DNA of 20,000 bases from an uncultured virus (IMG/VR IMGVR_UViG_3300008113_000139) (IMGVR_UViG_3300008113_000139), one strand, 5' to 3'. Positions 1 through 19,957 are shown, numbered from the stretch's first letter. Made by a program: numbers and translations. Notes: generated by a model not told the origin, from the sequence alone.

Positions 1-2
1 CA

Positions 3-1142
3 GATGCTTACAAGACTATGGAAGATTACCGTATCAACCGCTGCGAGTATCAACTCGATGGTTTCGTAGTCAAAGCTCCTAACGATCTTCGCCCGGGACT
101 TGGCGAAAACTCACACGATCCTAACTGGGCAGTTGCTATCAAGTTTCCTCCTAAGGAAGCAATCACCAAGATCGTATCGATATCTTGGCAGTTCGGGAAA
201 ACCGGAGAGGTTACTCCAGTCGCAGTTATGGAACCTATCGATCTTGACGGTTCTACGGTTTCACGAGCTGCTTTGTTCAATTACGGTTATCTAAAAACCA
301 AAGGCGCTTTTCCTGGCGCCACTGTCGCAATCGCAAAATCAGGTGATATCATACCGCAGATTACTCGAGTGGTAGTCGAAGGTTCGGAATCAAATCTGGA
401 AGTTCCTACCCACTGCAAATGTGGTTCGGAATTGCATTTGCGCGGAATCCACCTGATGTGCGAGAATCCTACCTGCGAAAACATTGCATTCAATATGTTT
501 GCCCAAGGAGTTGCTCAGCTCGACCTCGACGGCGTAGGTGGCTCAATGATACACCAACTCTGGAAAGCAGGCTACCGCTCTGCTGTGGAAATCTTAAACC
601 CTACCAAGTTTACTCGGGAACGTCTGTTCGCAAACAGCGAACTCAAACCCGGTAAGATGGTAGAAAATATGTTCAAAGAGATCGAAAAGATCAAAGAACT
701 CAAACCCGCTGAAGTTATTCTTATGCTGGGATTCCCAGGTATGGGCGGTTCTTCTGCCAAACAGGTAGGTAACATGCTGTCTGGTGTCAAGTACAACTTC
801 TCAGGATTGGAAAAGGCGGTCATCGCAGGATTCGGTGCTGGTGAAAAGAAACGCGAGATTTATGAATCTGCAATCGCTGAATTAGGACAGTTCATCGAGA
901 TCACTATGCCGGAGAAAATTGCTGAAGACGCAATACCTTTCGAGATGACAGGCTCACCAAAATCATTTGGGTTTAAGACCAAGGATGAATTCGTTGCTGC
1001 TGCCAAGGCCAAAGGATTCTATCACACGGGTCTCAAAGAAGCAAAGGTGCTTTTCGTCGACGATCTCAACACCATGAGCAACAAGATGAAAACTGCGCAA
1101 TCCAAAGGCGTAAAAATCATGCTCTATTCAGAGATCCTCTAA
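3..1142 (+). CDS. ligA: NAD-dependent DNA ligase, C-terminal part (gene starts upstream of the window)
   Basis: Frame open from window start. Motifs DGFVVK (IV), PNWAVAIKF (V), OB-fold QFGKTGEVTPVA and KSGDIIPQI, Cys4 Zn finger (CKC...C...C), HhH-like LDGVG and FPGMG, C-terminal BRCT-like MTGS...KGV. Confidence 0.93.
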   Translation, partial: DAYKTMEDYRINRCEYQLDGFVVKAPNDLRPGLGENSHDPNWAVAIKFPPKEAITKIVSISWQFGKTGEVTPVAVMEPIDLDGSTVSRAALFNYGYLKTKGAFPGATVAIAKSGDIIPQITRVVVEGSESNLEVPTHCKCGSELHLRGIHLMCENPTCENIAFNMFAQGVAQLDLDGVGGSMIHQLWKAGYRSAVEILNPTKFTRERLFANSELKPGKMVENMFKEIEKIKELKPAEVILMLGFPGMGGSSAKQVGNMLSGVKYNFSGLEKAVIAGFGAGEKKREIYESAIAELGQFIEITMPEKIAEDAIPFEMTGSPKSFGFKTKDEFVAAAKAKGFYHTGLKEAKVLFVDDLNTMSNKMKTAQSKGVKIMLYSEIL

Positions 1143-1150
1143 GATATATA
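1143..1150 (+). promoter_or_regulatory. Putative late promoter (GATATATA) heading leader-protein cassette 1
   Basis: AAGATATATACCTTAGAAAAAAAATACA is nearly identical to the sequence at 5263-5288. The same core precedes the gp15-like gene. Analogous to the T4 late TATAAATA element. Confidence 0.6.
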
Positions 1151-1173
1151 CCTTAGAAAAAAAATACATAGGA

Positions 1174-1653
1174 ATGAAACACATACAGCCTTTTGATCTA
1201 TTCATCAACGAAAAGAAAGACGAAAAGTACACCGCAAGAATCGAAGATTCAAGAAAGCCTGGCGGATCTGACAAAGACATCAAAAAAGATTATGGTCTTG
1301 ACGTTGAAAATCGTGACAGAGACGGATTTGATATAGTCGGAAAAAAAGAAGATATCGAGGCATTCATCGAAGACTATGGAATGGGATCTGAAGTAGAGAT
1401 AGAAGTTTACGAAAGTGCGGAAGCAACCAACGAAGGCAAGACTATCGGAACTCTTTCTGATGAAGATGACGATCTTTACTTAGAAGCAAAAGAACTTCTT
1501 GCTAAAGAATACGAGAAATTCCTTAAGACCGTTGAGCCAAAGTTGATGAAGATCATCAGTAAAGCAAGCAAGGATAACGTTCTTAAGACCAACCTACAGT
1601 CTAAAGCAGCGAATGACTTGGTTGATGTCTACAAAATTGGATTCCTAAAATAA
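1174..1653 (+). CDS. Hypothetical protein with MKHIQPFDLFINE leader (putative virion internal protein)
   Basis: 159-aa ORF, A-rich upstream region, shares the N-terminal leader with neighbours. Confidence 0.8.
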   Translation: MKHIQPFDLFINEKKDEKYTARIEDSRKPGGSDKDIKKDYGLDVENRDRDGFDIVGKKEDIEAFIEDYGMGSEVEIEVYESAEATNEGKTIGTLSDEDDDLYLEAKELLAKEYEKFLKTVEPKLMKIISKASKDNVLKTNLQSKAANDLVDVYKIGFLK

Positions 1654-1661
1654 GAATTGCA

Positions 1662-2486
1662 ATGAAACACATACACACATTTGAGAGCTTCTTAAATGAA
1701 GCAGAATCAGGAGGTCCTTACTTCCTCCAAATTAACCTAAGACAGAGCATGCTCGGCGGTCACTCTATAGACGCTGAAGTTGCTTCTTCAGGTACACAAG
1801 ATTTTGCCGACATTCGTGACAAAAGCGGTTTCTTAAAAACTCCTGCGTTGGACAAAGCGATGGCCGAACTGACTCTTTGGAAAAATAGAGATAAAAGCGG
1901 AAAGGTAGATGCTTCGTTCATCAAAGAATTTGAAAAGGCAATGGAAGGTATTGGGTTCAAACTTGCTAAGTTTAGATACTCAGCACCGCTTGTGAAACAG
2001 GTGGCTGATGAATCAGATGCGATCGCAGCGATCAAAGATACCGTCAAACTTTTAGACAAACTTTACGATTCTTACACACCTGAGTCGATTCCTGTTCAAC
2101 CGGGACCCGCTGCTTCTGCTAGAGGTCTGGCGGACAACTTAGTGAATAAATACGTAAGTGGAAGAGGAGACGTTGTGATGGAACTTGCCGAATTCATTTC
2201 AGCAGTCGCAGGACCTAAAGTCAACAAGTACATTAAGTACAGCGACCCAGTATACGACGGACCTATCATTGACAGAATCAAAGCACAGTACGACAAAGAG
2301 AGACCAGCCAAAGAACAGACTTGGGGTGTACTGAAGGCATCTGCTTACAAAGACGGGGTGGTCATCGTAAGAGTTGAGGATCCAAAGAAAACTTCTACAC
2401 CAGAATACACAACAGAGTACTCGGCTGGAAATCTTAAGAACAACGGAGTAAAACCCGGAGACATACTTCTTGCGGTCAAAAAGTAA
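1662..2486 (+). CDS. Hypothetical protein with MKHIHTFESFLNEA leader (putative virion internal protein)
   Basis: 274-aa ORF; leader identical to those at 2495 and 6054. Confidence 0.85.
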   Translation: MKHIHTFESFLNEAESGGPYFLQINLRQSMLGGHSIDAEVASSGTQDFADIRDKSGFLKTPALDKAMAELTLWKNRDKSGKVDASFIKEFEKAMEGIGFKLAKFRYSAPLVKQVADESDAIAAIKDTVKLLDKLYDSYTPESIPVQPGPAASARGLADNLVNKYVSGRGDVVMELAEFISAVAGPKVNKYIKYSDPVYDGPIIDRIKAQYDKERPAKEQTWGVLKASAYKDGVVIVRVEDPKKTSTPEYTTEYSAGNLKNNGVKPGDILLAVKK

Positions 2487-2494
2487 TCATAAGA

Positions 2495-2944
2495 ATGAAA
2501 CACATACATACATTCGAGAGCTTCTTGAATGAAGCGGCTAAAATAAGAATCGCATATACTCAGATCGATAAGAAAGCGTATGCTACACAAAAGCAAGGCG
2601 TCAAGTTTTCTGTGAAAATCAACAATCAAACAGCGACTGGAATCTGGGTCCCTAAGTTTGGCGATATGGCAAGCGGTGTTGACGTAAATGAATTGGAAGG
2701 ATCTGGCAGAAAAAGATTCTACATATTTTCTTCTGGCGGAACTTCTAAATCTTTTCCTATTAGTGCTCAACTTGAGGAATTAGACAGACAACCTAAAGAT
2801 TTACGTTTCACCGGTCCGTACCTTGACGTTAGCAAATTAAAAGATGTGTTCATTGACAAGATAACACAAGCTATAGAAAAACCTTCAAAAGATGAAGAAC
2901 TTTCGCCAGAGTTTTTGGAATACTTTGAGATAAGTCAAGTTTAA
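2495..2944 (+). CDS. Hypothetical protein with MKHIHTFESFLNEA leader (putative virion internal protein)
   Basis: 149-aa ORF, 8 nt after the previous stop; conserved leader. Confidence 0.85.
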   Translation: MKHIHTFESFLNEAAKIRIAYTQIDKKAYATQKQGVKFSVKINNQTATGIWVPKFGDMASGVDVNELEGSGRKRFYIFSSGGTSKSFPISAQLEELDRQPKDLRFTGPYLDVSKLKDVFIDKITQAIEKPSKDEELSPEFLEYFEISQV

Positions 2945-2964
2945 GAATAAAAAAATACATAAAG

Positions 2965-3333
2965 ATGAAACACATCAACACATTTGAGAACTTTGTAAAC
3001 GAGGCAGCAGTCTATGCAGACTTTACGTCTCAAGAAAAATCTGCGTGGAGACACTCTTCAAATCCTTACGGCGATTCCTACTTCATGCCTAAGACTGAAG
3101 AAGAATACACTAAGATGATGAAGTTCTTGGCAAGCAAAGGCTGGTCATTCTGGAATGTGAACAGATTCGGAGGACAGGAGCCAGTGAACGCAGACAAACT
3201 TCCAAAGTGGAAAAAAGACCTCGCATTCAAACTGAATCTGGGTGGCAAGACAGTGATGCCTACTATCGTAGGACCCACTACACAAGGCGCTCCGTTTGAT
3301 CACGAAAAGTTTTTCAAGATGACGGGCATGTAA
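2965..3333 (+). CDS. Hypothetical protein with MKHINTFENFVNEA leader (putative virion internal protein)
   Basis: 122-aa ORF; leader variant; upstream AAAAAATACATA also precedes ORF 1174. Confidence 0.85.
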   Translation: MKHINTFENFVNEAAVYADFTSQEKSAWRHSSNPYGDSYFMPKTEEEYTKMMKFLASKGWSFWNVNRFGGQEPVNADKLPKWKKDLAFKLNLGGKTVMPTIVGPTTQGAPFDHEKFFKMTGM

Positions 3334-3355
3334 AATCAAGATTGTTAAATACTAT

Positions 3356-3393
3356 AAGTTCTGTGGATGACCTCCACAGAACTTTTTTCTTTT
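3356..3393 (+). terminator. Rho-independent terminator closing cassette 1
   Basis: Perfect 12-bp stem AAGTTCTGTGGA / TCCACAGAACTT, 5-nt loop, followed by TTTTCTTTT. Confidence 0.88.
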
Positions 3394-3405
3394 AGTTAAT
3401 ATAAT
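3378..3405 (+). promoter_or_regulatory. Putative early/middle promoter AGAACT-N14-AATATAAT upstream of topoisomerase large subunit
   Basis: Same bipartite motif at 8275-8303 and 10332-10360; here it overlaps the terminator. Confidence 0.4.
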
Positions 3406-3441
3406 TACTGTAAGTTATTCACAAGTTCATACAAAGACATA

Positions 3442-5259
3442 ATGGCCAAGCAAAACAAACAAACTGCATCAAACAAAGAAATCGTAGCGCTCAGCGACTT
3501 TGAGCACGTACTTCACAGACCAACAATGTACATTGGTTCGGTCGAGAAATCTGAAGAAAAAGTACAGATCGTAGAGCCAGGAAAACTCGTCGAGAAGAAC
3601 AAGATCATTTCCGTAGGTTTCTACAAGATGCTCAATGAAATTGTCGACAACGCATTTGACGAAGCCAAGCGAATGAAAGGCCAGATGCCTAAGATCCGTG
3701 TCGAGATCGACTCTAAGACCAACCGAGTCAAAGTTACCGACACCGGAGGAGGATTTATCAATGCTGAGAAACCCAATCCTAAGACAGGACAGTCGAACGT
3801 AGAGACAGCGATGTCGATGCTTCGAGCCGGTTCTAACTTCTATAATGAAGATTCGACCGACAGCCTCATCGGAACCAACGGTGTAGGTGCTGCTTTGGTG
3901 AACATGCTGTCAGATGAGTTTTCCATCGAGACTGTGAACAACGATATTCACTTCGTCGCTACTTGGAACAAGTTCGTCAAGACCGATGAAACTTGCCGTC
4001 CTAAGAAACGCGGAGAACAGACAGGAACCACGGTTACATACATTCCAAGAAAGGATGTTTTCAAAGACTGTAAGTGGGATAAAGAATACTTGCACACGAT
4101 GTTCATATTCCGTCAGTTCTTGAAGAAAGAAGATCCTGTGATCAGCAACTTGGTAATTGAGTTTGTGTTCGATGGTCAGGTCATGGATCTTGACATCAAC
4201 TTCATTCCTGACGGTGCTCTTGCTTTCAAGAACAAACTAGGCATGTTCTTTGTCTGGGAGAAATACGAAAGCGGGACATCTGCTTCATTCGTCAACGGTG
4301 CTTTGTGTACGGGAATTCACCAGAGGATATTCACTGACTGGGTCAACGAAATCTTCGACTATCAACTTGCCCACCACTTTTACGATACATTCCTGATACT
4401 TAATTTTCCTCCTAAGCTGGTTCGCTTCGCCGACCAAAACAAGACCAAGTACGCGGCAGGACGCTGGGAGATTCAGCCAATGTTGGAAAAAGAATTCCAT
4501 AAGAAGTTGAGACACGCAGTACTTCGCTCAGATTTCTACGAAGCGGTCAAGAAAAAGATCGATGAAAGAAATCTCAAACAAGACCTCAACGCAATCAAGA
4601 ACAAGAAAAGAGCCGCTGCGAAAAAGATCAGCGACAAATACTTCCCACCGTCCGGAAGCAAAGGAACACTCTTCATAGTGGAAGGGAGTTCAGCGATGGG
4701 ATCAATCTTGCAAAAGAGAGATCCACGAGTTGATGCAGTCTATTCATTGAAAGGCAAGATCAAAAACGCAAGGAGTCTTTCTGACCTGAGCACCAACAAT
4801 GAAATCATTGACTTGATGAACATTCTCAATCTCGAGCCACGAGACGGAAGTAAGTGCACTTTCTCAAACATTGCAATCGCTACCGACTGGGACCCAGACG
4901 GAATCGGCCACATTGCATCCCTTGTGATCAACCTATTCTATAAGTGGTTCCCGCAAGTCATTGACCAAGGCAAGCTCAACATTCTTATTACACCTCTTGT
5001 GTCTGCCGAGGTGAACAACAAACGTAAGTACTTTTATTCGCTTCACGAGTGGGGACAGTTTGAGAAAAGCGGAACACCTTACCGCGGAGTTCGTTACCTC
5101 AAAGGTCTGGGTTCATTGAGTGTTGAAGACTGGCAGCTGATCATGGCAGAACGTAAGATGTTTAAAGTTCGTCAAGACCGCTCGGCAGCCAAGTTCATCG
5201 ACATCGCATTTGGCGCCAACAGTGACAAACGCAAGAAATGGCTTGAGGGTAGAATCTAA
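3442..5259 (+). CDS. gp39: Type IIA DNA topoisomerase large (ATPase+TOPRIM) subunit, GyrB/ParE-like, equivalent to T4 gp39+gp60 in one ORF
   Basis: EHVLHRPTMYIGS, GHKL motifs NEIVDNAFDE, DTGGG, GTNGVGAALVN; TOPRIM VEGSSA, LKGKIKN, DWDPDG; YLKGLGS. Confidence 0.95.
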   Translation: MAKQNKQTASNKEIVALSDFEHVLHRPTMYIGSVEKSEEKVQIVEPGKLVEKNKIISVGFYKMLNEIVDNAFDEAKRMKGQMPKIRVEIDSKTNRVKVTDTGGGFINAEKPNPKTGQSNVETAMSMLRAGSNFYNEDSTDSLIGTNGVGAALVNMLSDEFSIETVNNDIHFVATWNKFVKTDETCRPKKRGEQTGTTVTYIPRKDVFKDCKWDKEYLHTMFIFRQFLKKEDPVISNLVIEFVFDGQVMDLDINFIPDGALAFKNKLGMFFVWEKYESGTSASFVNGALCTGIHQRIFTDWVNEIFDYQLAHHFYDTFLILNFPPKLVRFADQNKTKYAAGRWEIQPMLEKEFHKKLRHAVLRSDFYEAVKKKIDERNLKQDLNAIKNKKRAAAKKISDKYFPPSGSKGTLFIVEGSSAMGSILQKRDPRVDAVYSLKGKIKNARSLSDLSTNNEIIDLMNILNLEPRDGSKCTFSNIAIATDWDPDGIGHIASLVINLFYKWFPQVIDQGKLNILITPLVSAEVNNKRKYFYSLHEWGQFEKSGTPYRGVRYLKGLGSLSVEDWQLIMAERKMFKVRQDRSAAKFIDIAFGANSDKRKKWLEGRI

Positions 5260-5264
5260 AAGAA

Positions 5265-5272
5265 GATATATA
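5265..5272 (+). promoter_or_regulatory. Putative late promoter (GATATATA) heading leader-protein cassette 2
   Basis: AAGATATATACTTGGAAAAAAATACA closely matches the element at 1141-1168. Confidence 0.6.
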
Positions 5273-5297
5273 CTTGGAAAAAAATACAAAGTTCTAA

Positions 5298-5699
5298 GTG
5301 ATCAAAAATTTCCACGACTGGCTCAACGAAGAAACCGACTATAAAGTCAAGTCTCCGATAGATGTCGAGATCATAACGGGCAACGTCAGGACCAACTTGG
5401 ATCCACAAGCCGAAGATTGGATGTCAAAGTCAAAAGATCTTGATGACTATAAGGCCATGTTGAAGGACATGCGCAAGGCTATTGGCGAAGACGACAAGCA
5501 AGCGGTCGAAAAGATCATAGGCAAAGCCAAAGAAACTCCTCTATTCGCAAAAGAACCGGGCACTATCTGGAGAAGGAAACAAATCGAGAACATGGAACCC
5601 ATGCGCTCAGATGCAGATTTTAACCGTTGGGTCGCCAGATATATAGTAAACAAACTAGGAGTTTTCATCTCTTGGTCAGAAAACAAGAAAGAATCATAA
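5298..5699 (+). CDS. Hypothetical protein with shortened leader variant (MIKNFHDWLNE)
   Basis: 133-aa ORF, GTG start, FxxWLNE variant of the leader, directly after the promoter motif. Confidence 0.75.
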   Translation: MIKNFHDWLNEETDYKVKSPIDVEIITGNVRTNLDPQAEDWMSKSKDLDDYKAMLKDMRKAIGEDDKQAVEKIIGKAKETPLFAKEPGTIWRRKQIENMEPMRSDADFNRWVARYIVNKLGVFISWSENKKES

Positions 5700-6043
5700 A
5701 TGAAACACATTCAGACATTCGCCCGGACGGCGTCGTAGAAGACGGCGGACCTGTCATAAACGTAGTTACGTACAATGTAATCACTGGAGGAACTTGGACC
5801 GCGGCGCAGTTCTTTAACCAAAAAGACGCACAGGCATGTGCTGATCTACTGAACAAAACCGAAGTAGGGTGCGCAAGCAAAGGCCCGAAATCTAAAGAAT
5901 ACGCAGCAGTTGTCAGAAAGGATACTTTTGGTAAGACCCTGTTCTTTGGTGAATTGGAATCGCTCAACGATACCGCTGGTACCAAGCTTGACATGAAAGA
6001 CATTTACGCAAGAGCCGTACAAGCATACAATTCTCTCAAATAA
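5700..6043 (+). pseudogene. Leader-family gene broken by an apparent deletion/frameshift near 5720
   Basis: ATG at 5700 reads MKHIQTF then ARTAS-stop. The coding-like body (PDGVVEDGGPVINVV...AYNSLK) continues in another frame to 6043. The ExFxNE part of the leader is missing. Confidence 0.65.
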
Positions 6044-6053
6044 AGAAATGACG

Positions 6054-6356
6054 ATGAAACACATACATACATTTGAAAGTTTTCTTAACGAGGCAAAAGA
6101 CATGTCATACTGGAAACAATACGCTAAAGGTCATCATTCGTTACCAAAGTGGTACAACGATGAAGTAAAAAGCGCGTCAGAAATTGCTGAACTCGTTGAC
6201 GAGGTTATTAAGAATGACCAAGCAGAAGCAGATATACCTTTTGACATTGACGAAAAAGATGAAAAGACTCTTGTCAAAATGGCGACCGATTATTTTAAGC
6301 AATTCAAAACTATCAACGGCAACGTCATCAGTGCCATGTTATTCCAAGGAGCATAA
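6054..6356 (+). CDS. Hypothetical protein with MKHIHTFESFLNEA leader
   Basis: 100 aa from ATG 6054 (ORF track starts at 6048); leader identical to 1662 and 2495. Confidence 0.85.
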   Translation: MKHIHTFESFLNEAKDMSYWKQYAKGHHSLPKWYNDEVKSASEIAELVDEVIKNDQAEADIPFDIDEKDEKTLVKMATDYFKQFKTINGNVISAMLFQGA

Positions 6357-6373
6357 AATCAAAACAACTATAA

Positions 6374-6733
6374 ATGGAAAAGGAATTACTTGCTAACGCA
6401 ATACAAATCCAAGGTCAATTAAAGGTCCTTCACTGGCAGACTCTTTCATACGCAGAACACAACGCTTTTGAAATGATCTATGATTCTATCGGAGACAAGC
6501 TCGACCGAATCATCGAGGTCTACAGCGGAAAATACCAAAGACCTAAGTTTGGGGGTGTAAAACAAATCACCTTTGCCGACTACGACAATCTTAAGATCGA
6601 CGCATTCTTGGAAGCATTCGAAGACTTCATGAACAACAGCTTCATGGCTCAGCAAGATGCTGAATTGAACAACATCAAAGATGAGATCGTAGCCGACATC
6701 CAAAAGCTCAAATACTTGCTTACATTAAAATAA
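6374..6733 (+). CDS. Small Dps/ferritin-like four-helix protein (DUF5856-like)
   Basis: LHWQTLSYAEHNAFEMIYDSIGDKLDRIIE matches the Dps-type HW...H......Y....D...E pattern; C-terminal ELNNIKDEI...KLKYLLTL. No leader. Confidence 0.7.
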   Translation: MEKELLANAIQIQGQLKVLHWQTLSYAEHNAFEMIYDSIGDKLDRIIEVYSGKYQRPKFGGVKQITFADYDNLKIDAFLEAFEDFMNNSFMAQQDAELNNIKDEIVADIQKLKYLLTLK

Positions 6734-6742
6734 ACAACCGCA

Positions 6743-7771
6743 ATGGGAGAATTTGTAAAACTTTTCGAAGAATTCGTCAACGAATCGCTGTTTCCAGATA
6801 GAGCATGGCACATCAAGTTTGGCAAAGCCAACGACAAAGACGCCATCAAAATGTTGAAAGACTTCTACGGGGACGAGATCATGGGTGAAGACTTCTATCC
6901 AGGTCCTGGCACCGATAAGACAATGGAATTGTCGAATGACAAATTGGTAAGTCTTTTCGACAAAGGATTGATCGTTGCCGTTGATCCAGATGACTTTGTT
7001 TACAAAGTTGCTGAATCAGAAGAACATATTGATGAAGCTTCTTTCGCCGGCCGTGCTTGGTCTGGCAAGATCGCAAACCTCGACAATCTATTTTCTTGGT
7101 TCTACGACAAAGGAATCCTAAACAAAGGAGAACAAGCTAAGAAAGACAGCCTGTTCCGTCAGTACTATCGTTACTACAACGACGGTGACTTTCCAAAAGG
7201 TCTTTCATCAAAAGGAATCAGCAAATATCACGGAGAAGAAAAGATCGAGAGAGCCCTTGAAGACGAGATCGAAAACTTCATGAAGCAGATCCTCAACAAG
7301 TACACCGGTAAGTACGACCGCAAAGAGTTCCACTTGGACACTCTTCTTAGCGACCTTTACACACTTCGTAGTGTCGTAGCAGGTCGCGATCTTGAAGGTG
7401 GTGTTAAAGGCGAGCCTGATCCATACGGACGCTTGAATTACTGGGGTAAGAAAGTAAATGTTAAAGATTCAGAGTTCGAGAAAATGCTTGGTGAGCTTCG
7501 TCCTCTTTACGATGATGCAAGAAAAGCAGTTGATGCAGCAGTCGACAAGGAAGTCAAAGGCGGAATCTACAAGGACAAGAAATCTTACGAGATACCTGGT
7601 CCTAACAACGGCATATCTTGGGTAAGACAGAGAATGGAAGGCGACGGAATCTGGACGCCTGATCTTGAGAAGAAATACCAAAAGATGAAGACACACATGC
7701 TTAAGATGGGCGACATCCTGAACACAGTCATAGAAGGCGCAGAAAAAGCCAAGGCCGAACTTGGATCATAA
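6743..7771 (+). CDS. Hypothetical protein with leader variant MGEFVKLFEEFVNES
   Basis: 342-aa ORF; FEEFVNE matches the leader consensus; acidic linker AESEEHIDEA around aa 90-99. Confidence 0.8.
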   Translation: MGEFVKLFEEFVNESLFPDRAWHIKFGKANDKDAIKMLKDFYGDEIMGEDFYPGPGTDKTMELSNDKLVSLFDKGLIVAVDPDDFVYKVAESEEHIDEASFAGRAWSGKIANLDNLFSWFYDKGILNKGEQAKKDSLFRQYYRYYNDGDFPKGLSSKGISKYHGEEKIERALEDEIENFMKQILNKYTGKYDRKEFHLDTLLSDLYTLRSVVAGRDLEGGVKGEPDPYGRLNYWGKKVNVKDSEFEKMLGELRPLYDDARKAVDAAVDKEVKGGIYKDKKSYEIPGPNNGISWVRQRMEGDGIWTPDLEKKYQKMKTHMLKMGDILNTVIEGAEKAKAELGS

Positions 7772-7801
7772 AGAATAACAACATCAAAAAACAAATACGA
7801 A

Positions 7802-8218
7802 ATGAAACATCTAAAAAACTTTGGAGACTTCATAACAGAACTCAAGAAATCGCAAGTTTCTGAGGAAGATGAGGATCTCGTAAAAAAGAACACTGAAGAA
7901 TCGTCAGACGATTCTGAAGAAAAGAAAGACGAAGCTCCTGAAGGCGGAGAAGAAAAGAAGGACGACAAAGAAATCGACCTTGATCTTGACGTAGCAGGCG
8001 ATGACGAAAAGAAGGAAGAAGCTCCTGAAGGCGGTGAAGAGAAGAAAGACGACGAAGAAAAAGTAGAACTCGACCTTGACCTTGATACCGACAAGAAAGA
8101 CGACGATTCTTCCGACGATGACGACAAGAAAGACGACGACGATTCTTCCGACGACGACAAGAAAGACGACGATGACGACGATGACGACAAAGCTCCGTCT
8201 GAAGACAGCGGTAAGTAA
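7802..8218 (+). CDS. Highly acidic low-complexity protein with leader MKHLKNFGDFITE (possible prohead core/scaffold-type protein)
   Basis: 138 aa dominated by D/E/K; internal repeats EAPEGGEEKKDD, DLDLD, DKKDDD. Confidence 0.75.
   Translation: MKHLKNFGDFITELKKSQVSEEDEDLVKKNTEESSDDSEEKKDEAPEGGEEKKDDKEIDLDLDVAGDDEKKEEAPEGGEEKKDDEEKVELDLDLDTDKKDDDSSDDDDKKDDDDSSDDDKKDDDDDDDDKAPSEDSGK
7919..8190 (+). repeat. Intragenic direct/tandem repeats of the acidic protein
   Basis: GAAGCTCCTGAAGGCGG at 7931 and 8018; GACAAGAAAGACGAC units three times from about 8090. Confidence 0.8.
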
Positions 8219-8237
8219 TCACTAATAAGTTATTGAC

Positions 8238-8269
8238 AAAACAGGGGCGCTAAGCGCCCCTGTTTTTTT
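8238..8269 (+). terminator. Rho-independent terminator closing cassette 2 (possibly bidirectional)
   Basis: AAAACAGGGGCGC-TAA-GCGCCCCTGTTTT then further Ts; GC-rich stem with A and T tracts on either side. Confidence 0.92.
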
Positions 8270-8274
8270 ATGTA

Positions 8275-8303
8275 AGAACTCTGGCACCTACTGAGAATAT
8301 AAA
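8275..8303 (+). promoter_or_regulatory. Putative early/middle promoter AGAACT-N15-AATATAAA upstream of topoisomerase medium subunit
   Basis: Lies between the terminator and the gene start, where a new promoter is needed; motif repeated at 3378 and 10332. Confidence 0.45.
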
Positions 8304-8323
8304 CATTACAATAACTTTTAGTT

Positions 8324-9718
8324 TTGAAGACCAAATCATATCCACTAAACATCTCAAAGCAAATCGATGTAAATTTCAGGAACTATGCTCTCTACGTTCT
8401 AGAGAATCGCGGAATTCCATCTTTCTATGATGCTTTGACGAATGTACAGCGTTTTATAGTTCTAAACGCTCCTCACAACTATAACAAGACAATATCACTA
8501 GTAGGTTCTTGCATTTCTGATGGATATCACCACGGAGACAAGTCGCTGACCGGCGCGATCAATAAACTGGCTCGTCCATTTGGAAATAGCGAGCAGCTTC
8601 TGCAAGGTGATGGGTTCTTTGGCACTCCTATCAATCACGAAGCATCTGCGGCTCGTTATACATCGGTCAAGATCAATCCTAAGATTGCCGATATGATTCG
8701 TAAGAGTGACTTCCTCAATGAAAAGAACGAAGAAGGATCTTGGAATCCTCTTTGGCTCGACTTACCCATCGGCATTACGAATATGATCATAGGCATCGCG
8801 GTAGGTTACAAAACAACCGTTCTTCCTCGAGATCTTGAAGACATCCAGAAATACTTGGATGGATCAATCAAAGAAGTGGTACCTAAGTTTAAGAATTTCA
8901 AGGGAAAGGTTAAAAGGTTCAAAGGCTTGAACAAGACCTGGCTGATCGAAGGAGTTATGCAGGTCAATGAATCAGCAAAGACGATCCGTGTAACTGAATT
9001 ACCGCCGCTCATGAAGTATGGCAGTTTCTTGAAAAAGTTAGAGACTATACTTGAGAACCACACTGTAAAAATGACGAACAACTCGTCAACGAATATCGAC
9101 ATAATCTTGCAGTTCGCTGGTAAGAAAGACGAATGGCAAGTGTTCTTAGACGCAGTCGAGAAAAGTATCAAGATGCTCATAACCGAAACGCCGGTCTTTG
9201 TAAAAGACGGACTTGTTCTGGAATACGAAAGAATCGAAGACTACATCAATGACTACCGTTATCGATTAGCTGATCTAAGAGTTCGCAGGATTCAGCACTT
9301 TAAGAAATTGAACGATGATGAACTGTTATTCTTAATCTATAAAGAAAAGTACTTGATGTTCATGCTTGCTGGAAAAGGTAAGATGAGAACCGACTCTGAA
9401 GTCGACTCTTTCTTGACAGAACTAACATCCGAACATCCACACATTCGTAGACGTTTGGAATCAATCTTATTAAAGTCCTTGACAGAACAAGAACTTGAAA
9501 GAACCCGTGAAAGGATTAAGTTCTTAAAAGAAGAAATCAAACGTCAAGAAAAAGAACTTGCACAAGCAGTCAAAGATTTCCAAAAGATGGAAGACACGGC
9601 TCTAAAAAGAGCAACCACAAACCGTTCAGCATCATCGGTGGATCTCTTTGCCGATGAAGAAGAAATCGATGGAATAGAAGTATATCAAAATGCAATACAA
9701 GATGAAGAAGAAATTTAA
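8324..9718 (+). CDS. gp52: Type IIA DNA topoisomerase medium (breakage-reunion) subunit, GyrA/ParC-like, T4 gp52 equivalent
   Basis: RGIPSFYDALTNVQR, YHHGDKS, GDGFFG, catalytic AARYT, GIAVGY, ELPP; TTG start; acidic C-terminus. Confidence 0.93.
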   Translation: MKTKSYPLNISKQIDVNFRNYALYVLENRGIPSFYDALTNVQRFIVLNAPHNYNKTISLVGSCISDGYHHGDKSLTGAINKLARPFGNSEQLLQGDGFFGTPINHEASAARYTSVKINPKIADMIRKSDFLNEKNEEGSWNPLWLDLPIGITNMIIGIAVGYKTTVLPRDLEDIQKYLDGSIKEVVPKFKNFKGKVKRFKGLNKTWLIEGVMQVNESAKTIRVTELPPLMKYGSFLKKLETILENHTVKMTNNSSTNIDIILQFAGKKDEWQVFLDAVEKSIKMLITETPVFVKDGLVLEYERIEDYINDYRYRLADLRVRRIQHFKKLNDDELLFLIYKEKYLMFMLAGKGKMRTDSEVDSFLTELTSEHPHIRRRLESILLKSLTEQELERTRERIKFLKEEIKRQEKELAQAVKDFQKMEDTALKRATTNRSASSVDLFADEEEIDGIEVYQNAIQDEEEI

Positions 9719-10331
9719 TACCGCACCGCTTCTGCATGCGCGCCCACAATCACACGACGAAGATGAACAAACAAACATGCATCCAGGAATCTCAGTTCTA
9801 GGCGATCACATCTGGTTCTACGGCCCTATAGATGAAAGATCAGCTCTTGCTCTGAACCGCTCTTTACATGAGTTATCAATGAAACTAGCTCCCACGGCGT
9901 TTTCTTCGATGCAAGAAGTTGGATCTCCTTCACCAATCTGGCTTCACATAAATTCAACAGGCGGAGAGATATTCTCATCTTTTGCTATCGCTGATACCGT
10001 TGAAAGGATATCCTCGTTGACCCCGGTCATAACAGTCATTGAAGGATGTGCTGCATCAGGAGCTACATTCGTATCAACCGCAGGAACAAAAAGGCTCATG
10101 CGAAAAAATGCCTACATGCTCGTTCATGAGTTAAGCAGTGCATCTTGGGGCAAGTACACAGAACTCAAAGACGACATGGTCAGCAACGACTCTATCATGA
10201 AGACTGTTAAAGATTGGTACACATCTAAGACAAAGCTACCTGCCAAAGAACTCGATAAAATACTATCACACGATATCTGGTGGAATGCCAAGCAATGTCT
10301 CAAGTACGGCCTCATTGATCAAATCATCTAA
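9702..10331 (+). CDS. clpP: ClpP-family serine protease
   Basis: IWFYGPID, INSTGGE, catalytic triad context CAASGA (Ser), MLVHE (His), HDIWW (Asp), C-terminal YGLIDQII. Start may be 9690 or 9702. Confidence 0.9.
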   Translation: MKKKFNTAPLLHARPQSHDEDEQTNMHPGISVLGDHIWFYGPIDERSALALNRSLHELSMKLAPTAFSSMQEVGSPSPIWLHINSTGGEIFSSFAIADTVERISSLTPVITVIEGCAASGATFVSTAGTKRLMRKNAYMLVHELSSASWGKYTELKDDMVSNDSIMKTVKDWYTSKTKLPAKELDKILSHDIWWNAKQCLKYGLIDQII

Positions 10332-10382: not shown

Positions 10383-11123
10383 ATGAAAAACGTAAAATCA
10401 CTTCAATTAAGCTCAACTGAAGAACTTTCCAATTTTCTCAGAAGGTTTGCGCCAATCTCGTCAAGCCTTTTGATCGAAGTGGAAGATGGACAACTCAAGG
10501 CAAAGACTCACACTCCCGAAAGGTCTGTTGTGAAATCATCCAAAATCGACATGACTCGTGTTTTCGATATGGAAGATGGATCTGATGATTCTGTAAAGTT
10601 TGGTCTTTACTCTGTGGATCGTATGATGAAATCATTCAGTCACTTCGGAAGCGGGGCCATCGAGTTTGAACTTCATCAGGAAAATACATCGGAAGGAAAT
10701 GTAGGAACTGACATCAACTTGAAGAACGAATCTTTGGACATCAACTTCCAATGTGCCAGCCTTCGTCTGTTCACACACATCACCGATGAAATGATGGACA
10801 AGATTGCGGATTCATCTGCTGCTGAGGTCTCTTTCGTTCTTACCAAAGAAATGCAAGCTAAGATCAACAGCTTGGCTGGAATCGACGCAGACCAGAAGTT
10901 GCTGACAATCGGTGTTAAGAAAGGAAACGTAGTCGTTTCGGGTAAGAGCTTTAACTTAAACCTCATGAACATCGAGACTTCCACAGATGTAACAATCTCT
11001 GTTTACAAAAATCAATTTGCATATTTGGATAAAGAAGACACAATGGTGTATGTGACTGAAGATCGTCTTATCTTCCACTCTATTGAGTCTGATACCAAAA
11101 TGATAATCGGAAAAGCTGAGTAA
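10383..11123 (+). CDS. gp45: DNA polymerase sliding clamp (T4 gp45-like)
   Basis: 246 aa; FLRRFAPISSSLLI and FGLYSVDRMMKSF resemble the gp45 N-terminal patterns; stop overlaps the polymerase start (TAATG). Confidence 0.7.
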   Translation: MKNVKSLQLSSTEELSNFLRRFAPISSSLLIEVEDGQLKAKTHTPERSVVKSSKIDMTRVFDMEDGSDDSVKFGLYSVDRMMKSFSHFGSGAIEFELHQENTSEGNVGTDINLKNESLDINFQCASLRLFTHITDEMMDKIADSSAAEVSFVLTKEMQAKINSLAGIDADQKLLTIGVKKGNVVVSGKSFNLNLMNIETSTDVTISVYKNQFAYLDKEDTMVYVTEDRLIFHSIESDTKMIIGKAE

Positions 11124-12301
11124 TGAAGTACTGCCAGATCGATCCCGCCGCATCAAGCAAAGAGGACATCGAGGCAGAGATCGCAAGACTAACATACTTG
11201 ATGAACCTCAAAAAGAATGAGGAACAAGCTATCAAGATCTTCATTAACTCTGTCTATGGTGCCACAGCTTCCCCCTACTTCGTTGGTTACAATGTAAGAG
11301 TTGCAGAGGCAATTACTCTGCAAGGACAAGAGATGATTAAGTTCGTCTCAAAAATTACGAACCGTTACTTCAACGAGTTTTGGCACAAAGACAAGAAGCT
11401 TCACGAAGTCCTCGGCCTTACGGACGTTAAACAAGTAAAAGGCGAAGTCGCAGTCTACGGTGATACCGACTCTTGCTACGTAGCTTTTGAGGAAGTGGTT
11501 TCTGGATGTGATTGGAAAGAAGACCCAATCAAACTTATTCACGGAATCTATAAGAATAGATTAAAAGAATATCTAGGAACCGCTTTCAAAAAGTTTGCTG
11601 AAGGTTACGGAACAGAAAACATCCAAGATCTCGAGCTCGAAACCATTTCATACTCAGCAATCTTCTTAAAGAAAAAGAAGTATGTGATGGATAAAGCTTG
11701 GAAATCTGGAGAAGGCGACGGTATCTTTTACAAAGAACAAGAAAAGATCGACGCAAAAGGTGTTGAAATCGTACAGTCATCAACTCCTGCTTTTGCTCGT
11801 AAGAAGATGAAAGAACTGCTGAAGATCATTTTTCGCGAAAGAAACAAGCTCAACATGCGCAGCCTCGCTGATCTGCTTAAGAAAGAAAAGCAAGCGTTCA
11901 TACTTGACAACATCGAGAACATCTCAATGTCTTCGAGTATCAGCGATTACGAAAAAGGAATTGCAGATGATCGTAAATCACTGGTCTTCAATGACCACTG
12001 CCCGATGCACGTCCGCGCCGCTGGGTTCCACAACTATCTGATAAACAATAGTAAGTGGAAGAACAAGTACCAGCTAATTAAAAGTGGAGACAAAGTAAGA
12101 TATTACTACGCTAAGAACGATGAAGGCGGAGAAAACGTATTCGCTTACTTGCCAGCAAACCATCCGGTGGAAATTGCTCCTGCTGTTGATTATGATCTGC
12201 AGTTCGCAAAGTGTATCGTAGATCCTCTCAATCGTTTCATCGCAGCAATCGGCTTACCACCTCTATCACCAGAACTCATCGTAAGAACACAACTATTCTA
12301 A
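11123..12301 (+). CDS. gp43: Family B DNA polymerase, C-terminal subunit of a split enzyme (gp43B-like)
   Basis: Motif B KIFINSVYG, ITLQGQ, motif C YGDTDS, KKKKY, KGVEIVQSSTP; no exonuclease domain or motif A; only 392 aa. Confidence 0.9.
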   Translation: MKYCQIDPAASSKEDIEAEIARLTYLMNLKKNEEQAIKIFINSVYGATASPYFVGYNVRVAEAITLQGQEMIKFVSKITNRYFNEFWHKDKKLHEVLGLTDVKQVKGEVAVYGDTDSCYVAFEEVVSGCDWKEDPIKLIHGIYKNRLKEYLGTAFKKFAEGYGTENIQDLELETISYSAIFLKKKKYVMDKAWKSGEGDGIFYKEQEKIDAKGVEIVQSSTPAFARKKMKELLKIIFRERNKLNMRSLADLLKKEKQAFILDNIENISMSSSISDYEKGIADDRKSLVFNDHCPMHVRAAGFHNYLINNSKWKNKYQLIKSGDKVRYYYAKNDEGGENVFAYLPANHPVEIAPAVDYDLQFAKCIVDPLNRFIAAIGLPPLSPELIVRTQLF

Positions 12302-13920: not shown

Positions 13921-15181
13921 ATGGTATCTACCCATTTAGAAAAAATCTTTTATCACTACTTACTATCGAGAAAAGAACTCGTTGATGTAGTCAGCAATAA
14001 CCAAGGAGTTCGTCGAAAAATACAGCACGATTCCGACCAAAGCACAGATCGTAGAACTCACTAAAGTTAAAGGCTTACAAGAAGACCTAACAGAAACTAA
14101 AGTTGATTCGCTGTTCGATGTCCGTCTTGGAGAATACGATGAAGACTGGCTTCAGCAAACAGCTGAGTCTTGGATTGAATATAAGAACCTTGACATATCG
14201 GTTCTAGACCTCATCACATATCTTAAGACTACCAAGGTTTCTGTGGAAAACGTCAAAGACGTGGTACAGAATGCCAAGAACATCATAACCGAACGCAACA
14301 ACATTCAGTTTGGATTCGATGAAGGTCTTGACTTCTTTGATCCTGAGTCTCACACACAACCAACCACCGATACATTTAGCTCAGGAATTCCTTACATTGA
14401 TCTTGTTCTTGGCGGAGGATTCTACTCAAAAGCGCTTTTCTGCTTCATTGGTGAAATGAAGATTGGTAAGTCGATCTGGCTGGCCAACCTTGCAGCCAAT
14501 AGCGTAAGAATGGGTTACAATACCGCGGTCTTATCGTTAGAGATGAGAGATCGCAAACTCGTTAAGAGGTTAGGCGCAAACTTGCTAAACATCAGTATGC
14601 GAGAGTACGCTCAAGCAGCCGAAGACAAAGTCATGATGAAGAAGCGTCTGGCCCAAGTAGGGTATGATAGTCTTCAGGTGCCAGGAAAACTTTACGTTAA
14701 AGAATTTCCAACATCATCTGCCGGTGTTCCTGACATCGAGCGCTACTTACAAAAGATGGAAGAAACCAAAGGAATCAAGTTTAAGGTGATCATTCTTGAC
14801 TACATCAACATTCTTAAGAACTGGAGAAATCCCAATTCCGAGAATATGTATATGAAGATCAAACAAATTGCTGAAGACTTAAGAGCGATGGCTATGAGAA
14901 ATGACTGGGCTATCGTTACAGCGACTCAGATCAACCGATCTGGCTTCGGAAGTACCGACTTAAACGCAACCAACATTTCAGAATCAGCAGCATTAGGTCA
15001 TACGGTCGATGCAATGTTTGGTATCATACAGGATGAGATCATGCACGCAAACCGAGAGTACATATTGAAACTAATCGCTAACCGCGACGATGGATACAAA
15101 AATTCCCGTAGGAAGTTCTTGATTAACTATGATTACATGAGAATCATGGAAGATCCGGACTCAACAATAATCACAGAATAA
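13921..15181 (+). CDS. gp41: Replicative DnaB-family helicase (T4 gp41-like), with frameshift/deletion near 13993
   Basis: Walker A GEMKIGKS, SLEM, KEFPT, ILDYINIL, TATQINR, ISES. The main frame is open from 13991 (AITKEFVEKYSTIPTK...); the natural-looking N-terminus MVSTHLEKIFYHYLL (13921) is in another frame. Confidence 0.88.
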
Positions 15182-15612: not shown

Positions 15613-16604
15613 ATGCAGAGAATAAACGCAAAAAGAATCTGGCTGATATCCGACACACACTTAGGAGTTCGTTCGAATTCCCGTGAGTGGATGGACATCA
15701 TAGAAGATTACTTTAGAAACTTCTTTATACCGCTTCTGGAAAAGGAAGGAAGACCCGGCGATGTGGTAGTCCACTGCGGTGATGTATTTGATTCAAGACA
15801 GTCGATCAACCTGTACGTACTCAACAAAGGTATCAGCATATTTGAAGACATTGCCAAGATCATGCCAACTTATATGATCATCGGCAATCACGACATCTTT
15901 ATGAAGTACACCAACGAAATCAACTCGTTGAAAGTTTTTAGGAACGTCGAGAACATAACTGTGTTTGAAGAACCTACACACATGATGTTTGGAGATAAGA
16001 AGATGTTCTTTTTACCTTGGGTTGAAAAGCACGAAGAAATCAAAGAAATCATAAAAGATCCAAAGAATGCATCAGACGTCCTCTTTTGTCATACTGATAT
16101 TCGCGGTCTATCTTTTAATCGTTTCACAAAGATTGAAGAAGGAACCGAAGCAGAAGTCTTCAAAGGCCATAAGAGAGTTATACCGAAACACAGTTCAAAA
16201 ATGATTATTCTCCAAGATTTCTAAGATACAAGCTCGAGTGGATTCTCGAGCAGACATTAGAAGACCTCCAGGCAACTTTTCAAAACAATTTTATAGATAT
16301 TATGGTCACACCACAGTGGTCCTTGAAATTCCCTTTCTCGGCCTTTACTGAAAAGTTTAGTGGGTATCGTAAGATCAATCATAATATCGTCACCGAAGAA
16401 GAACAAAAAGTTGAAGACGGCGAAGAACTTGCCGAAGGAGAATCTGGAGAAATCAATCTTACGTCATTGATCGAAAAACATATAGAAGGTCTTCACTACT
16501 CAGACGCAATCAAAGAAAAACTAATATCCGTAAGCAAGAAACTCTACCAAGAAGCCTTGCGAGAATTGGAGGAAAAAAGAAGTCATGAAAATCAAAACAA
16601 TTGA
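15613..16604 (+). CDS. gp47: Mre11/SbcD-like recombination nuclease (T4 gp47-like), interrupted by an apparent deletion/frameshift near 16180
   Basis: Metallophosphoesterase motifs SDTHLG, GDVFD, GNHD, FCH. The GHxH motif is missing. The C-terminal part (TETQFKNDYSPRFLRYKLEW...) continues in another frame, open from 16173 to 16604. Confidence 0.85.
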
Positions 16605-19947: not shown

Positions 19948-19957
19948 GAATATATAG
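19948..19957 (+). promoter_or_regulatory. Putative late promoter variant (GAATATATAG)
   Basis: ATATATA core followed by an A-rich leader and ATG at 19983. Confidence 0.45.

Follow-up and report, generated by a model that had tools for sequence, protein, structure and literature searches.

Bacteriophage T4 loads proteins into its head by means of a capsid-targeting sequence (CTS), a short N-terminal peptide that is common to the unrelated proteins IPI, IPII, IPIII, and Alt and is removed by the gp21 protease. The N-terminus of both IPII and IPIII reads MKTYQEFIAE/A, where the slash marks the cut. According to a review of T4 head assembly, the first ten residues are enough for packaging, with targeting depending mainly on residues 4 and 7 and processing on residues 8 and 10; the same review describes the internal-protein loci of T-even phages as variable (PMC9026906). 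Head and ejection proteins of the giant phages phiKZ, 201phi2-1, and SPN3US are described as cut after Glu by a gp21-related protease, and their propeptides are thought to direct proteins into the prohead (PMC5694885). The subject here is a set of genes that share a 13-residue N-terminal leader, M-K-H-I-x-x-F-E-x-F-[LIV]-N-E, in a 20,000-nucleotide stretch of DNA from an uncultured virus (IMG/VR IMGVR_UViG_3300008113_000139). The whole of this stretch is referred to as the window. The shared N-terminus is probably (about 65%) a lineage-specific form of a T4-type capsid-targeting leader that is removed by a protease.

The leader can be compared with the T4 peptide from its last residue. T4 residues 4, 7, 8, and 10, counted from the Glu, correspond to the conserved F(-6), F(-3), [LIV](-2), and E(0) of the leader. 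At the sequence level, the leader ends in a gp21-type cut-site pattern, with L, I, or V at P3, Glu at P1, and a small residue next. The residue that comes after [LIV]-N/T-E in the window is A, S, E, K, or L. T4 gp23 contains FGSFLTE and then AEIGG, which is presumably the gp23 maturation site. It resembles the FESFLNE/AE of the gene that starts at 1662 (leader genes are named here by their start positions).

Leader genes and their payloads

Between positions 1174 and 8218, the leader was found at the start of eight intact genes and one broken gene, all on the + strand (Table 1). All nine starts listed in the first-pass annotation were thus present. Seven of the intact genes start with ATG and one, the 5298 gene, with GTG. 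Chance does not account for these starts. In six-frame translation there were 7 ATG-started leader matches, whereas 300 first-order Markov simulations gave a mean of 0.1 and at most 2. Among the 22 + strand genes counted in the window, 8 are leader genes; when residues were shuffled within proteins 1000 times, the mean was 0.008 and the maximum 1. Elsewhere in the window the core motif has two occurrences, one within a + strand gene (gp39, 4330) and one in a minus frame. None of the replication genes in the window starts with the leader, as had been annotated. Three further leader genes are located 7.8-8.5 kb upstream of the window on sibling contigs, and the total is at least 12 tagged genes within about 17 kb.

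The sibling contigs are two metagenome contigs (L141 and L142) that belong to the same phage, with 100% identity over window 1-5712 and 99.95% over 5713-9918, and they extend the window by 10 kb upstream. The break in the 5700 gene is due to 133 bp that are missing from the window at 5712/5713, a deletion between short ACATTC repeats by which the leader end is lost and the frame is shifted. L141 and L142 carry the 133 bp, and the gene there encodes an intact 158-amino-acid (aa) leader protein (MKHIPSFDNFLNE/E). A contig from an independent lake run (X14) also carries the 133 bp.

The search for leaders used a degenerate DNA pattern and then a relaxed protein pattern on the loci that were fetched. 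The DNA pattern was found in at least 140 stretches of IMG/VR viral contigs, often several per contig, and in 1 stretch in 596 Gb of bacterial and archaeal genomes. The leader is virus-specific. The relaxed pattern returned 231 distinct leader proteins with the consensus M-K-H-I-K-[LT]-F-E-x-F-[LIV]-N-E-[S/A/G], and conservation ends after the small residue that follows the Glu. This residue is S, A, or G in 148 of the 231 and P2 is Asn in 196; the protein pattern left E8, the Asn at P2, and the residue after the Glu free, and the DNA pattern used for fetching fixed E8 and the Asn in at least one gene per locus. The aromatic counts (207 F and 23 Y of 231 at -6, 224 F and 7 Y at -3) are partly built in, as an aromatic residue or Leu was required at -6 and an aromatic residue at -3. 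LR756500, an uncultured 462-kb phage, has its own variant, MKYIKEYEEF..E, with 20 pattern matches and 0 in a reversed control. The nearest cultured relative by capsid protein is Tenacibaculum phage PTm1, where a search with a loosened form of the leader pattern gave 0 matches.

At each conserved position of the leader, the 231 proteins use a mixture of synonymous codons. Leu is encoded by TTA, CTA, CTT, and TTG, Ser by AGC and AGT, and Phe, Asn, Glu, and His each by both of their codons. Selection therefore acts on the leader peptide. It has to be considered that conservation is at the nucleic-acid level, either for translation initiation without a Shine-Dalgarno sequence or as a homology patch for cassette swapping, with the peptide as a by-product. 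No Shine-Dalgarno-like sequence was found ahead of the leader genes, and their upstream regions are A-rich. The A-rich AAAAATACA has 4 sites, all on the + strand, against 0.48 expected (1160-1168, 2951-2959, 5280-5288, and 14016-14024). Three of these are 6-10 nt ahead of leader-gene starts, and the sequence may serve as a context for translation initiation if the host lacks Shine-Dalgarno pairing. In addition, contigs of run X1 fuse leader copies of different genes, through recombination or an assembler confused by a 40-nt repeat, and variability is described for T-even internal-protein loci (PMC9026906). The free mixing of codons nevertheless makes this reading highly improbable, and the variants of other lineages retain the residue pattern and not the DNA. 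Cassette swapping is possible as an added benefit, but it leaves the conserved junction unexplained.

In these X1 contigs, the leader of the 1662 gene runs into that of the 6054 gene (1701 to 6047), and there is also a loop from 1701 back to 1662. The 40-nt leader repeats concerned (window 1662-1701 and 6047-6093) could reflect either recombination in the population or a misled assembler.

The first-pass annotation saw no similarity among the proteins after the Glu, and this held in an all-against-all BLASTP comparison of 12 payloads, where the best E was 0.17. None of the nine leader proteins of the window had a Pfam family above cut-off or a PHROG. AlphaFold2 models were built for the 1662 and 6743 proteins on alignments of homologues. 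The 1662 protein, in which the leader is present in 13 of 13 homologues, is predicted to be alpha/beta, with a mean predicted local distance difference test score (pLDDT) of 82.4 and with residues 1-17 below 50. The 6743 protein is predicted to have an all-alpha domain at residues 105-342, mostly with pLDDT above 90 (mean 79.9 for the model). Residues 1-22 and 78-100 of this model, the latter before a second junction, are below 50. The leader is thus modular, with differing predicted folds behind it in the two models.

The 150 longest of the 174 complete leader proteins of relatives were scanned against Pfam. Seven were above cut-off, with AAA_5, CTP_transf_like (two), cREC_REC, DUF5824 (two), and DUF6934, and of the remainder 5 had sub-threshold matches and 138 had none. 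It is close to negligible that all these proteins are one diverged family in which the leader is the first helix of a common fold. They are all small and mostly unannotated, and sequence searches can miss distant kinship. Against this are the payload E of 0.17, the two differing folds with a low-confidence leader in both and further low-confidence residues next to it in one, and the same leader on AAA_5, cytidylyltransferase-like, and cREC_REC domains. There is also one payload family with leaders of quite different length and sequence.

That payload family is the 6743 family, for which 103 homologues were found. A domain anchor of the G-R-A-W type is present in 97 of 104 sequences, and in 90 of these 97 the last Glu is 4-5 residues ahead of the anchor. 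P3 is L, I, or V in 89 of the 97 and P1' is Ala in 80. The peptide before this junction ranges from 8 to 123 residues in several variants, such as MSFKEYLSE/A, which is near that of T4. The nearest of the homologues that lack the 85-aa insert of the window protein have the leader followed directly by /ASFAGRAW. A [LIV]-x-E/A junction fixed behind variable leaders is what would be seen with a removable propeptide that has one constant cut site, and it is hard to square with a leader that belongs to the fold.

The function of the payloads was explored through their predicted structures. In Foldseek searches against the PDB, the best E was 0.58 with the 6743 model and 0.046 with the 1662 model. 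When compared with 48,161 chains by VIA-align, the 6743 model had a best Z of 8.4 (root-mean-square deviation 3.4, 120 aligned) to generic helical bundles and the 1662 model a best Z of 4.9 (3.2, 63 aligned), both in the range that the tool rates as common. The ESM Atlas offered no usable lead, and the 6743 protein had no tblastn match in GenBank phages. IPI of T4 acts in the next host against GmrSD. Since the fold and Atlas searches gave nothing convincing, an anti-defence role for the payloads is only an analogy with IPI. The comparison with known folds, which the first-pass annotation had suggested with anti-defence folds in view, came back empty for the two payloads modelled.

Head genes, promoter-like boxes, and a proposed mechanism

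The leader-bearing relatives can indicate which head proteins are available to such a leader. PF03420, the gp21 family, was found in 14 of 20 leader-bearing contigs (5 of 5 large and 9 of 15 further). PF07068 (gp23) was found in all five large contigs, with 20-26% identity to T4 gp23. A close relative of the window phage, G014, whose homologue (locus L051) of the 2495 protein is 82% identical, carries both gp21-family protease and gp23-type capsid genes. The protease gene of the relatives encodes 576-747 aa and has repeats behind the protease domain, such as EYAEYIAE, SYSDYLAE, and FFKFINE. In the three genes read, this scaffold part holds 3 (G005), 4 (G004), and 7 (G014) copies of the motif. 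A leader gene of 112-118 aa lies between portal and protease in three of four loci examined, the place where T4 has gp67 and gp68. The capsid proteins begin M-x-x-L-[IL]-N-E/[AS]-E in 5 of 5 read.

Two other observations were made in the relatives. Four contigs (G002, G003, G007, and G017) have a second, short gp21-family match in a 132-aa open reading frame (ORF) far from the head module, for example G002:C1:57359-57613. A diverged protease paralogue is mentioned for giant phages in the SPN3US literature (PMC5694885). G004 has long ORFs at 133341-135326 and 138619-139854 with leader-like motifs both N-terminal and internal, one of them a full MKHIQLFEQFINE at residue 347 of a 411-aa ORF. These could be either polyproteins that are cut into modules or fused gene calls.

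The leader genes also appear to share a promoter-like box with virion genes. The window has four GATATATA sites, where 0.29 would be expected, and all are on the + strand; three are ahead of leader genes and the fourth is ahead of a gp15-like tail gene (Table 1). This tail gene is the start of a virion module; its homologues adjoin head modules in G004 and G005, and the gene order gp47-gp46-gp15-like is common to the window and G014. Neither GATATATA nor ATATATA was found ahead of a replication gene in the window. The broader ATATATA has a fifth + strand site at 19950, beyond the end of the gp15-like gene. In G005, GATATATA occurs 32 times on the + strand and 0 times on the minus strand and is the 8-mer most enriched upstream of genes; the counts for G004 are 34 and 6. 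Among the 27 sites in G005 with a downstream ORF, 7 are ahead of virion genes (portal, protease, capsid, head closure, tail sheath, tail tube, and tail-fibre-like) and 6 are ahead of leader genes that match the pattern. G014 has [AG]ATATATAAA ahead of portal, protease, and other genes beside the head genes. GATATATA or [AG]ATATATAAA is a candidate late promoter of the clade, distinct from the TATAAATA of T4, which does not occur in the window. Sigma-70-type promoter matches were no more frequent in the window (10) than in shuffles (11.0).

Within 1000-8600, the strongest pair of terminator-like hairpins (3356-3384 and 8238-8266) is found directly 3' of the last gene of each leader block. Terminator-like sites overall were not above shuffles (8 against 7.3), and just these two were used. 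With a box at the start and a terminator at the end of each block, the leader genes thus look like two self-contained transcription units, which are probably late units set between replication genes. Contigs of two metatranscriptome libraries overlap parts of the leader genes, and such contigs give no level, timing, or strand. The runs were found using a leader gene and the libraries may contain DNA, so this coverage is no more than a hint.

The window also holds a ClpP-like protease gene (9690-10331), and PF00574 is present in four of the five large leader-bearing relatives. Rather than a capsid address, the leader could be a tag recognized by another common partner, such as an N-terminal degron or adaptor-binding helix for timed removal by the ClpP-like protease, or a sorting tag for another compartment. 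A degron would also look like a short N-terminal amphipathic peptide on unrelated proteins. This reading is very unlikely, since it leaves the fixed [LIV]-x-E/small-residue junction, the motif copies in the protease-scaffold gene, the leader on head-module genes, and the box in common with virion genes all unexplained. In addition, G005 has leader genes and no ClpP match in a contig that is about 53% complete. PHROGs groups the ClpP-like protein of the window with head maturation proteases, and the head protease of the relatives is of the gp21 family. The start of the ClpP-like gene (9690) overlaps the end of a topoisomerase gene (9718).

It is unlikely, but less so, that the leader does target the prohead and is cut, while the payloads are prohead-core assembly components, like T4 gp67, gp68, and the internal peptides, that are degraded or expelled at maturation and so do not serve as effectors in the next host. 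The very acidic, low-complexity body of the 7802 protein is similar in character to the acidic tail of T4 gp67, and in three of the four relatives examined a leader gene occupies the gp67/68 position. Payload isoelectric points (pI) lie between 4.1 and 9.3, with most payloads acidic or neutral; the internal proteins best known from T4 are basic. The 6743 family, with its 103 homologues, is kept across many lineages, unlike fast-evolving counter-defence genes. The 7802 protein and the 6743 family could equally be core or assembly components. For the set as a whole, 12 or more core components per phage would be far above what T4 uses. The gene content of the cassettes varies between relatives, which fits accessory cargo, and some payloads in relatives are enzyme-like.

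Under the favored reading of a removable capsid-targeting leader, two cassettes (1143-3394 and 5265-8276) that stand between replication genes would be made together with the head proteins, because each has the ATATATA-type box of virion genes at its start and a strong terminator at its end. The aromatic residues of the leader, at -6 and -3 from the final Glu, may bind the scaffold core of the assembling prohead. Judging from the relatives, this scaffold would itself consist of repeats of the same aromatic-x-x-aromatic-[LIV]-x-E motif. The next step would be cleavage by a gp21-family prohead protease between the Glu of [LIV]-N-E and the small residue that follows, and the payload would be freed inside the head.

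A wider version of this mechanism is put forward tentatively, at less than even odds. The cargo leader may be a copy of the scaffold repeat, so that tagged proteins co-assemble into the core and the cut that breaks up the scaffold also sets them free. This would amount to a simple, programmable packaging code shared by a large clade of T4-related, Lak-related, and huge phages. The lineage variants would be MKHIKLFEQFINE here, MKYIKEYEEF..E in LR756500, and MSFKEYLSE in others. The cargo of a single phage would amount to a dozen or more different proteins, including multi-module polyproteins that are cut inside the head.

The first-pass annotation had proposed an 'address tag + variable payload' system, likened to the T4 CTS, that packages effectors for co-injection with the DNA. 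The tag and its likeness to T4 gain support from the modularity, the cut site, the recurrence of the motif in the scaffold, the head-module genes, and the box. The effector and co-injection half found no support.

Several points weigh against a capsid-targeting leader. The link to head genes comes from relatives, of which G014 is the closest, and the head genes of the window phage are outside the DNA covered. Six of the 20 leader-bearing contigs have no PF03420 match, all six being fragments estimated at 28-67% complete. The box is not exclusive to leader and virion genes, as one site in G005 is ahead of the gene for the small subunit of ribonucleotide reductase, and G014 has AATATATAAA more often than GATATATA. 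The excess of ATATATA in the window is modest (5 sites where 1.16 are expected, with 5 reached in 8 of 200 shuffles), and the gp15 match of the tail gene is slightly under the Pfam cut-off (24.0 against 25 bits). One gene of block 2 (6374-6733, DUF5856) is without the leader, and one of the upstream genes has the first ten leader residues without the NE. An AAA ATPase and cytidylyltransferase-like payloads, as found in relatives, would be atypical head cargo. There is no laboratory model at hand, because the cultured PTm1 lacks such a leader.

The window and its surroundings

The window is filled by the replication module of a T4-related freshwater phage, with every gene on the + strand (Table 1). 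Sequences of the phage are present in at least 14 DNA runs. A megablast search of the whole window against GenBank phages gave no match. By UvsX, the closest phages are LR756500 (45%) and the Prevotella Lak megaphages (41%).

Table 1. Annotated features of the window in order of position, with the leader of each leader gene and the residues after its predicted cut (slash).
Feature	Position	Strand	Details
NAD-ligase, 3' part	within window	+	
GATATATA box	1143..1150	+	candidate late-type promoter of block 1; 31 nt ahead of the 1174 leader gene
Leader gene	1174..1653	+	ATG start; 159 aa; MKHIQPFDLFINE/K; acidic payload
Leader gene	1662..2486	+	ATG start; 274 aa; MKHIHTFESFLNE/AE; predicted alpha/beta payload
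Leader gene	2495..2944	+	ATG start; 149 aa; MKHIHTFESFLNE/AA
Leader gene	2965..3333	+	ATG start; 122 aa; MKHINTFENFVNE/AA
Terminator-like hairpin closing block 1	3356..3394	+	12-bp stem and T run
Topoisomerase II large subunit	3442-5259	+	
GATATATA box	5265..5272	+	candidate promoter of block 2; 25 nt ahead of the 5298 gene
Leader gene	5298..5699	+	GTG start; 133 aa; short form MIKNFHDWLNE/E
GATATATA box, third	5638..5645	+	54 nt ahead of the 5700 gene
Broken leader gene	5700..6043	+	MKHIQTF and five residues, then stop; open frame resumes in another frame to 6043
Leader gene	6054..6356	+	ATG start; 100 aa; MKHIHTFESFLNE/AK
Gene without leader, DUF5856	6374..6733	+	inside block 2; PF19174, E 3.3e-15; PHROG 858
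Two-module leader gene	6743..7771	+	ATG start; 342 aa; leader MGEFVKLFEEFVNE/S, 85-aa insert, second junction HIDE/A, conserved all-alpha domain (predicted)
Leader gene	7802..8218	+	ATG start; 138 aa; MKHLKNFGDFITE/L; very acidic low-complexity payload, pI 4.1
Terminator-like hairpin closing block 2	8238..8276	+	13-bp stem, 8 GC pairs, and T run
Topoisomerase II gene, second	8324-9718	+	
ClpP-like protease	9690-10331	+	within replication module; PF00574, E 2.9e-25
Family-B DNA polymerase, C-terminal part	11123-12301	+	
RecA/UvsX-like gene; helicase gene	within window	+	
Mre11/Rad50-like genes	within window	+	
GATATATA box, fourth	from 18260	+	5 nt ahead of the gp15-like tail gene
gp15-like tail gene	18273-19916	+	PF16724, E 2.5e-5, 24.0 bits (cut-off 25)

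The family-B DNA polymerase appears as two genes about 15 kb apart. One is the C-terminal part in the window and the other is L141:14408-15781, on the minus strand of that contig and about 4.4-5.7 kb upstream of the window. The 458-aa part contains the exonuclease domain and profile positions 26-147, and the 392-aa part covers profile positions 152-447. G004 has a comparable 465-aa N-terminal polymerase part as its own ORF.

The Mre11/gp47-like gene (window 15613-16604) is in two frames that correspond to residues 3-191 and then 235-356 of the G014 homologue, with about 43 residues missing. The contig of run X14 has additional letters at 16179/16180 of the window, and the X1 and X14 contigs both have 39 additional letters at about 13998. 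It seems that the window assembly is without several short stretches that are present in other data sets, the 133-bp gap at 5712 included. These missing stretches may represent a deletion-prone variant or an assembly fault.

Meaning and comparison with known systems

If the leader does direct proteins into the head, many uncultured large phages of lakes, seas, and guts would carry a larger and more varied protein cargo than T4, and a newly infected cell would meet these proteins before any other phage product. Such cargo could be found in metagenomes at little cost by using the leader as a sequence marker, and the conserved junction predicts exact mature N-termini for metaproteomes. A likely role would be assigned to a class of small "hypothetical" genes that makes up 8 of the 22 + strand genes counted in the window. 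For phages that do not belong to the enterobacterial T4 group, the tag could also provide a handle by which engineered particles are loaded.

Literature searches with the leader strings found no paper describing such leaders. Among the matches listed, the literature on the 'capsid targeting sequence' concerned T4, P1, P22, SPN3US, and vaccine platforms, with none on uncultured phages. In the literature on cyanophages, megaphages, huge phages, and metagenomes, the phrase was in none of the matches listed.

The closest known system is the CTS of T4. Both systems have a short N-terminal peptide that is common to unrelated proteins, with aromatic residues at -6 and -3, [LIV] at -2, Glu at 0, and a small residue after it, and the relatives of the window phage have gp21-, gp23-, and gp20-family proteins. 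The leader differs in having 13 residues instead of 10 and its own consensus, MKHIK[LT]FExF[LIV]NE, with Asn at P2. T4 tags IPI-III and Alt, whereas at least 12 genes are tagged in about 17 kb here, and the two-module proteins with an internal second junction are also a difference. The protease of the relatives is fused to a scaffold region built of motif repeats. The host of the window phage is probably not enterobacterial; the relatives and the lack of Shine-Dalgarno sites point tentatively to freshwater Bacteroidota.

The variable internal-protein loci of T-even phages are similar in that the leader is kept while the payloads differ between related phages. The clade here is far more distant, with the capsid protein 20-26% identical to T4 gp23 and with uncultured huge phages, Lak phages, and Tenacibaculum phage PTm1 as the nearest relatives. 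The payloads here are mostly acidic or neutral, and the cassettes are inside a replication module with their own promoter-like box and terminator. The propeptides of the giant phages are mostly longer than 100 residues and have the motif A/S/G-x-E, with no short tag common to many genes (PMC5694885).

A looser analogy is found in the cargo-loading peptides of encapsulins, where a short terminal peptide sends unrelated cargo inside an HK97-fold shell. Unlike the leader, those peptides are usually C-terminal and are not removed by a protease, and the compartment is cellular and not a virion. In kind, the system is already known, both from the CTS of T4 and from the T-even loci whose internal proteins vary. 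The novelty is in how the tag is built and how many genes bear it, in the two-module proteins and the scaffold composed of the same motif, and in the clade.

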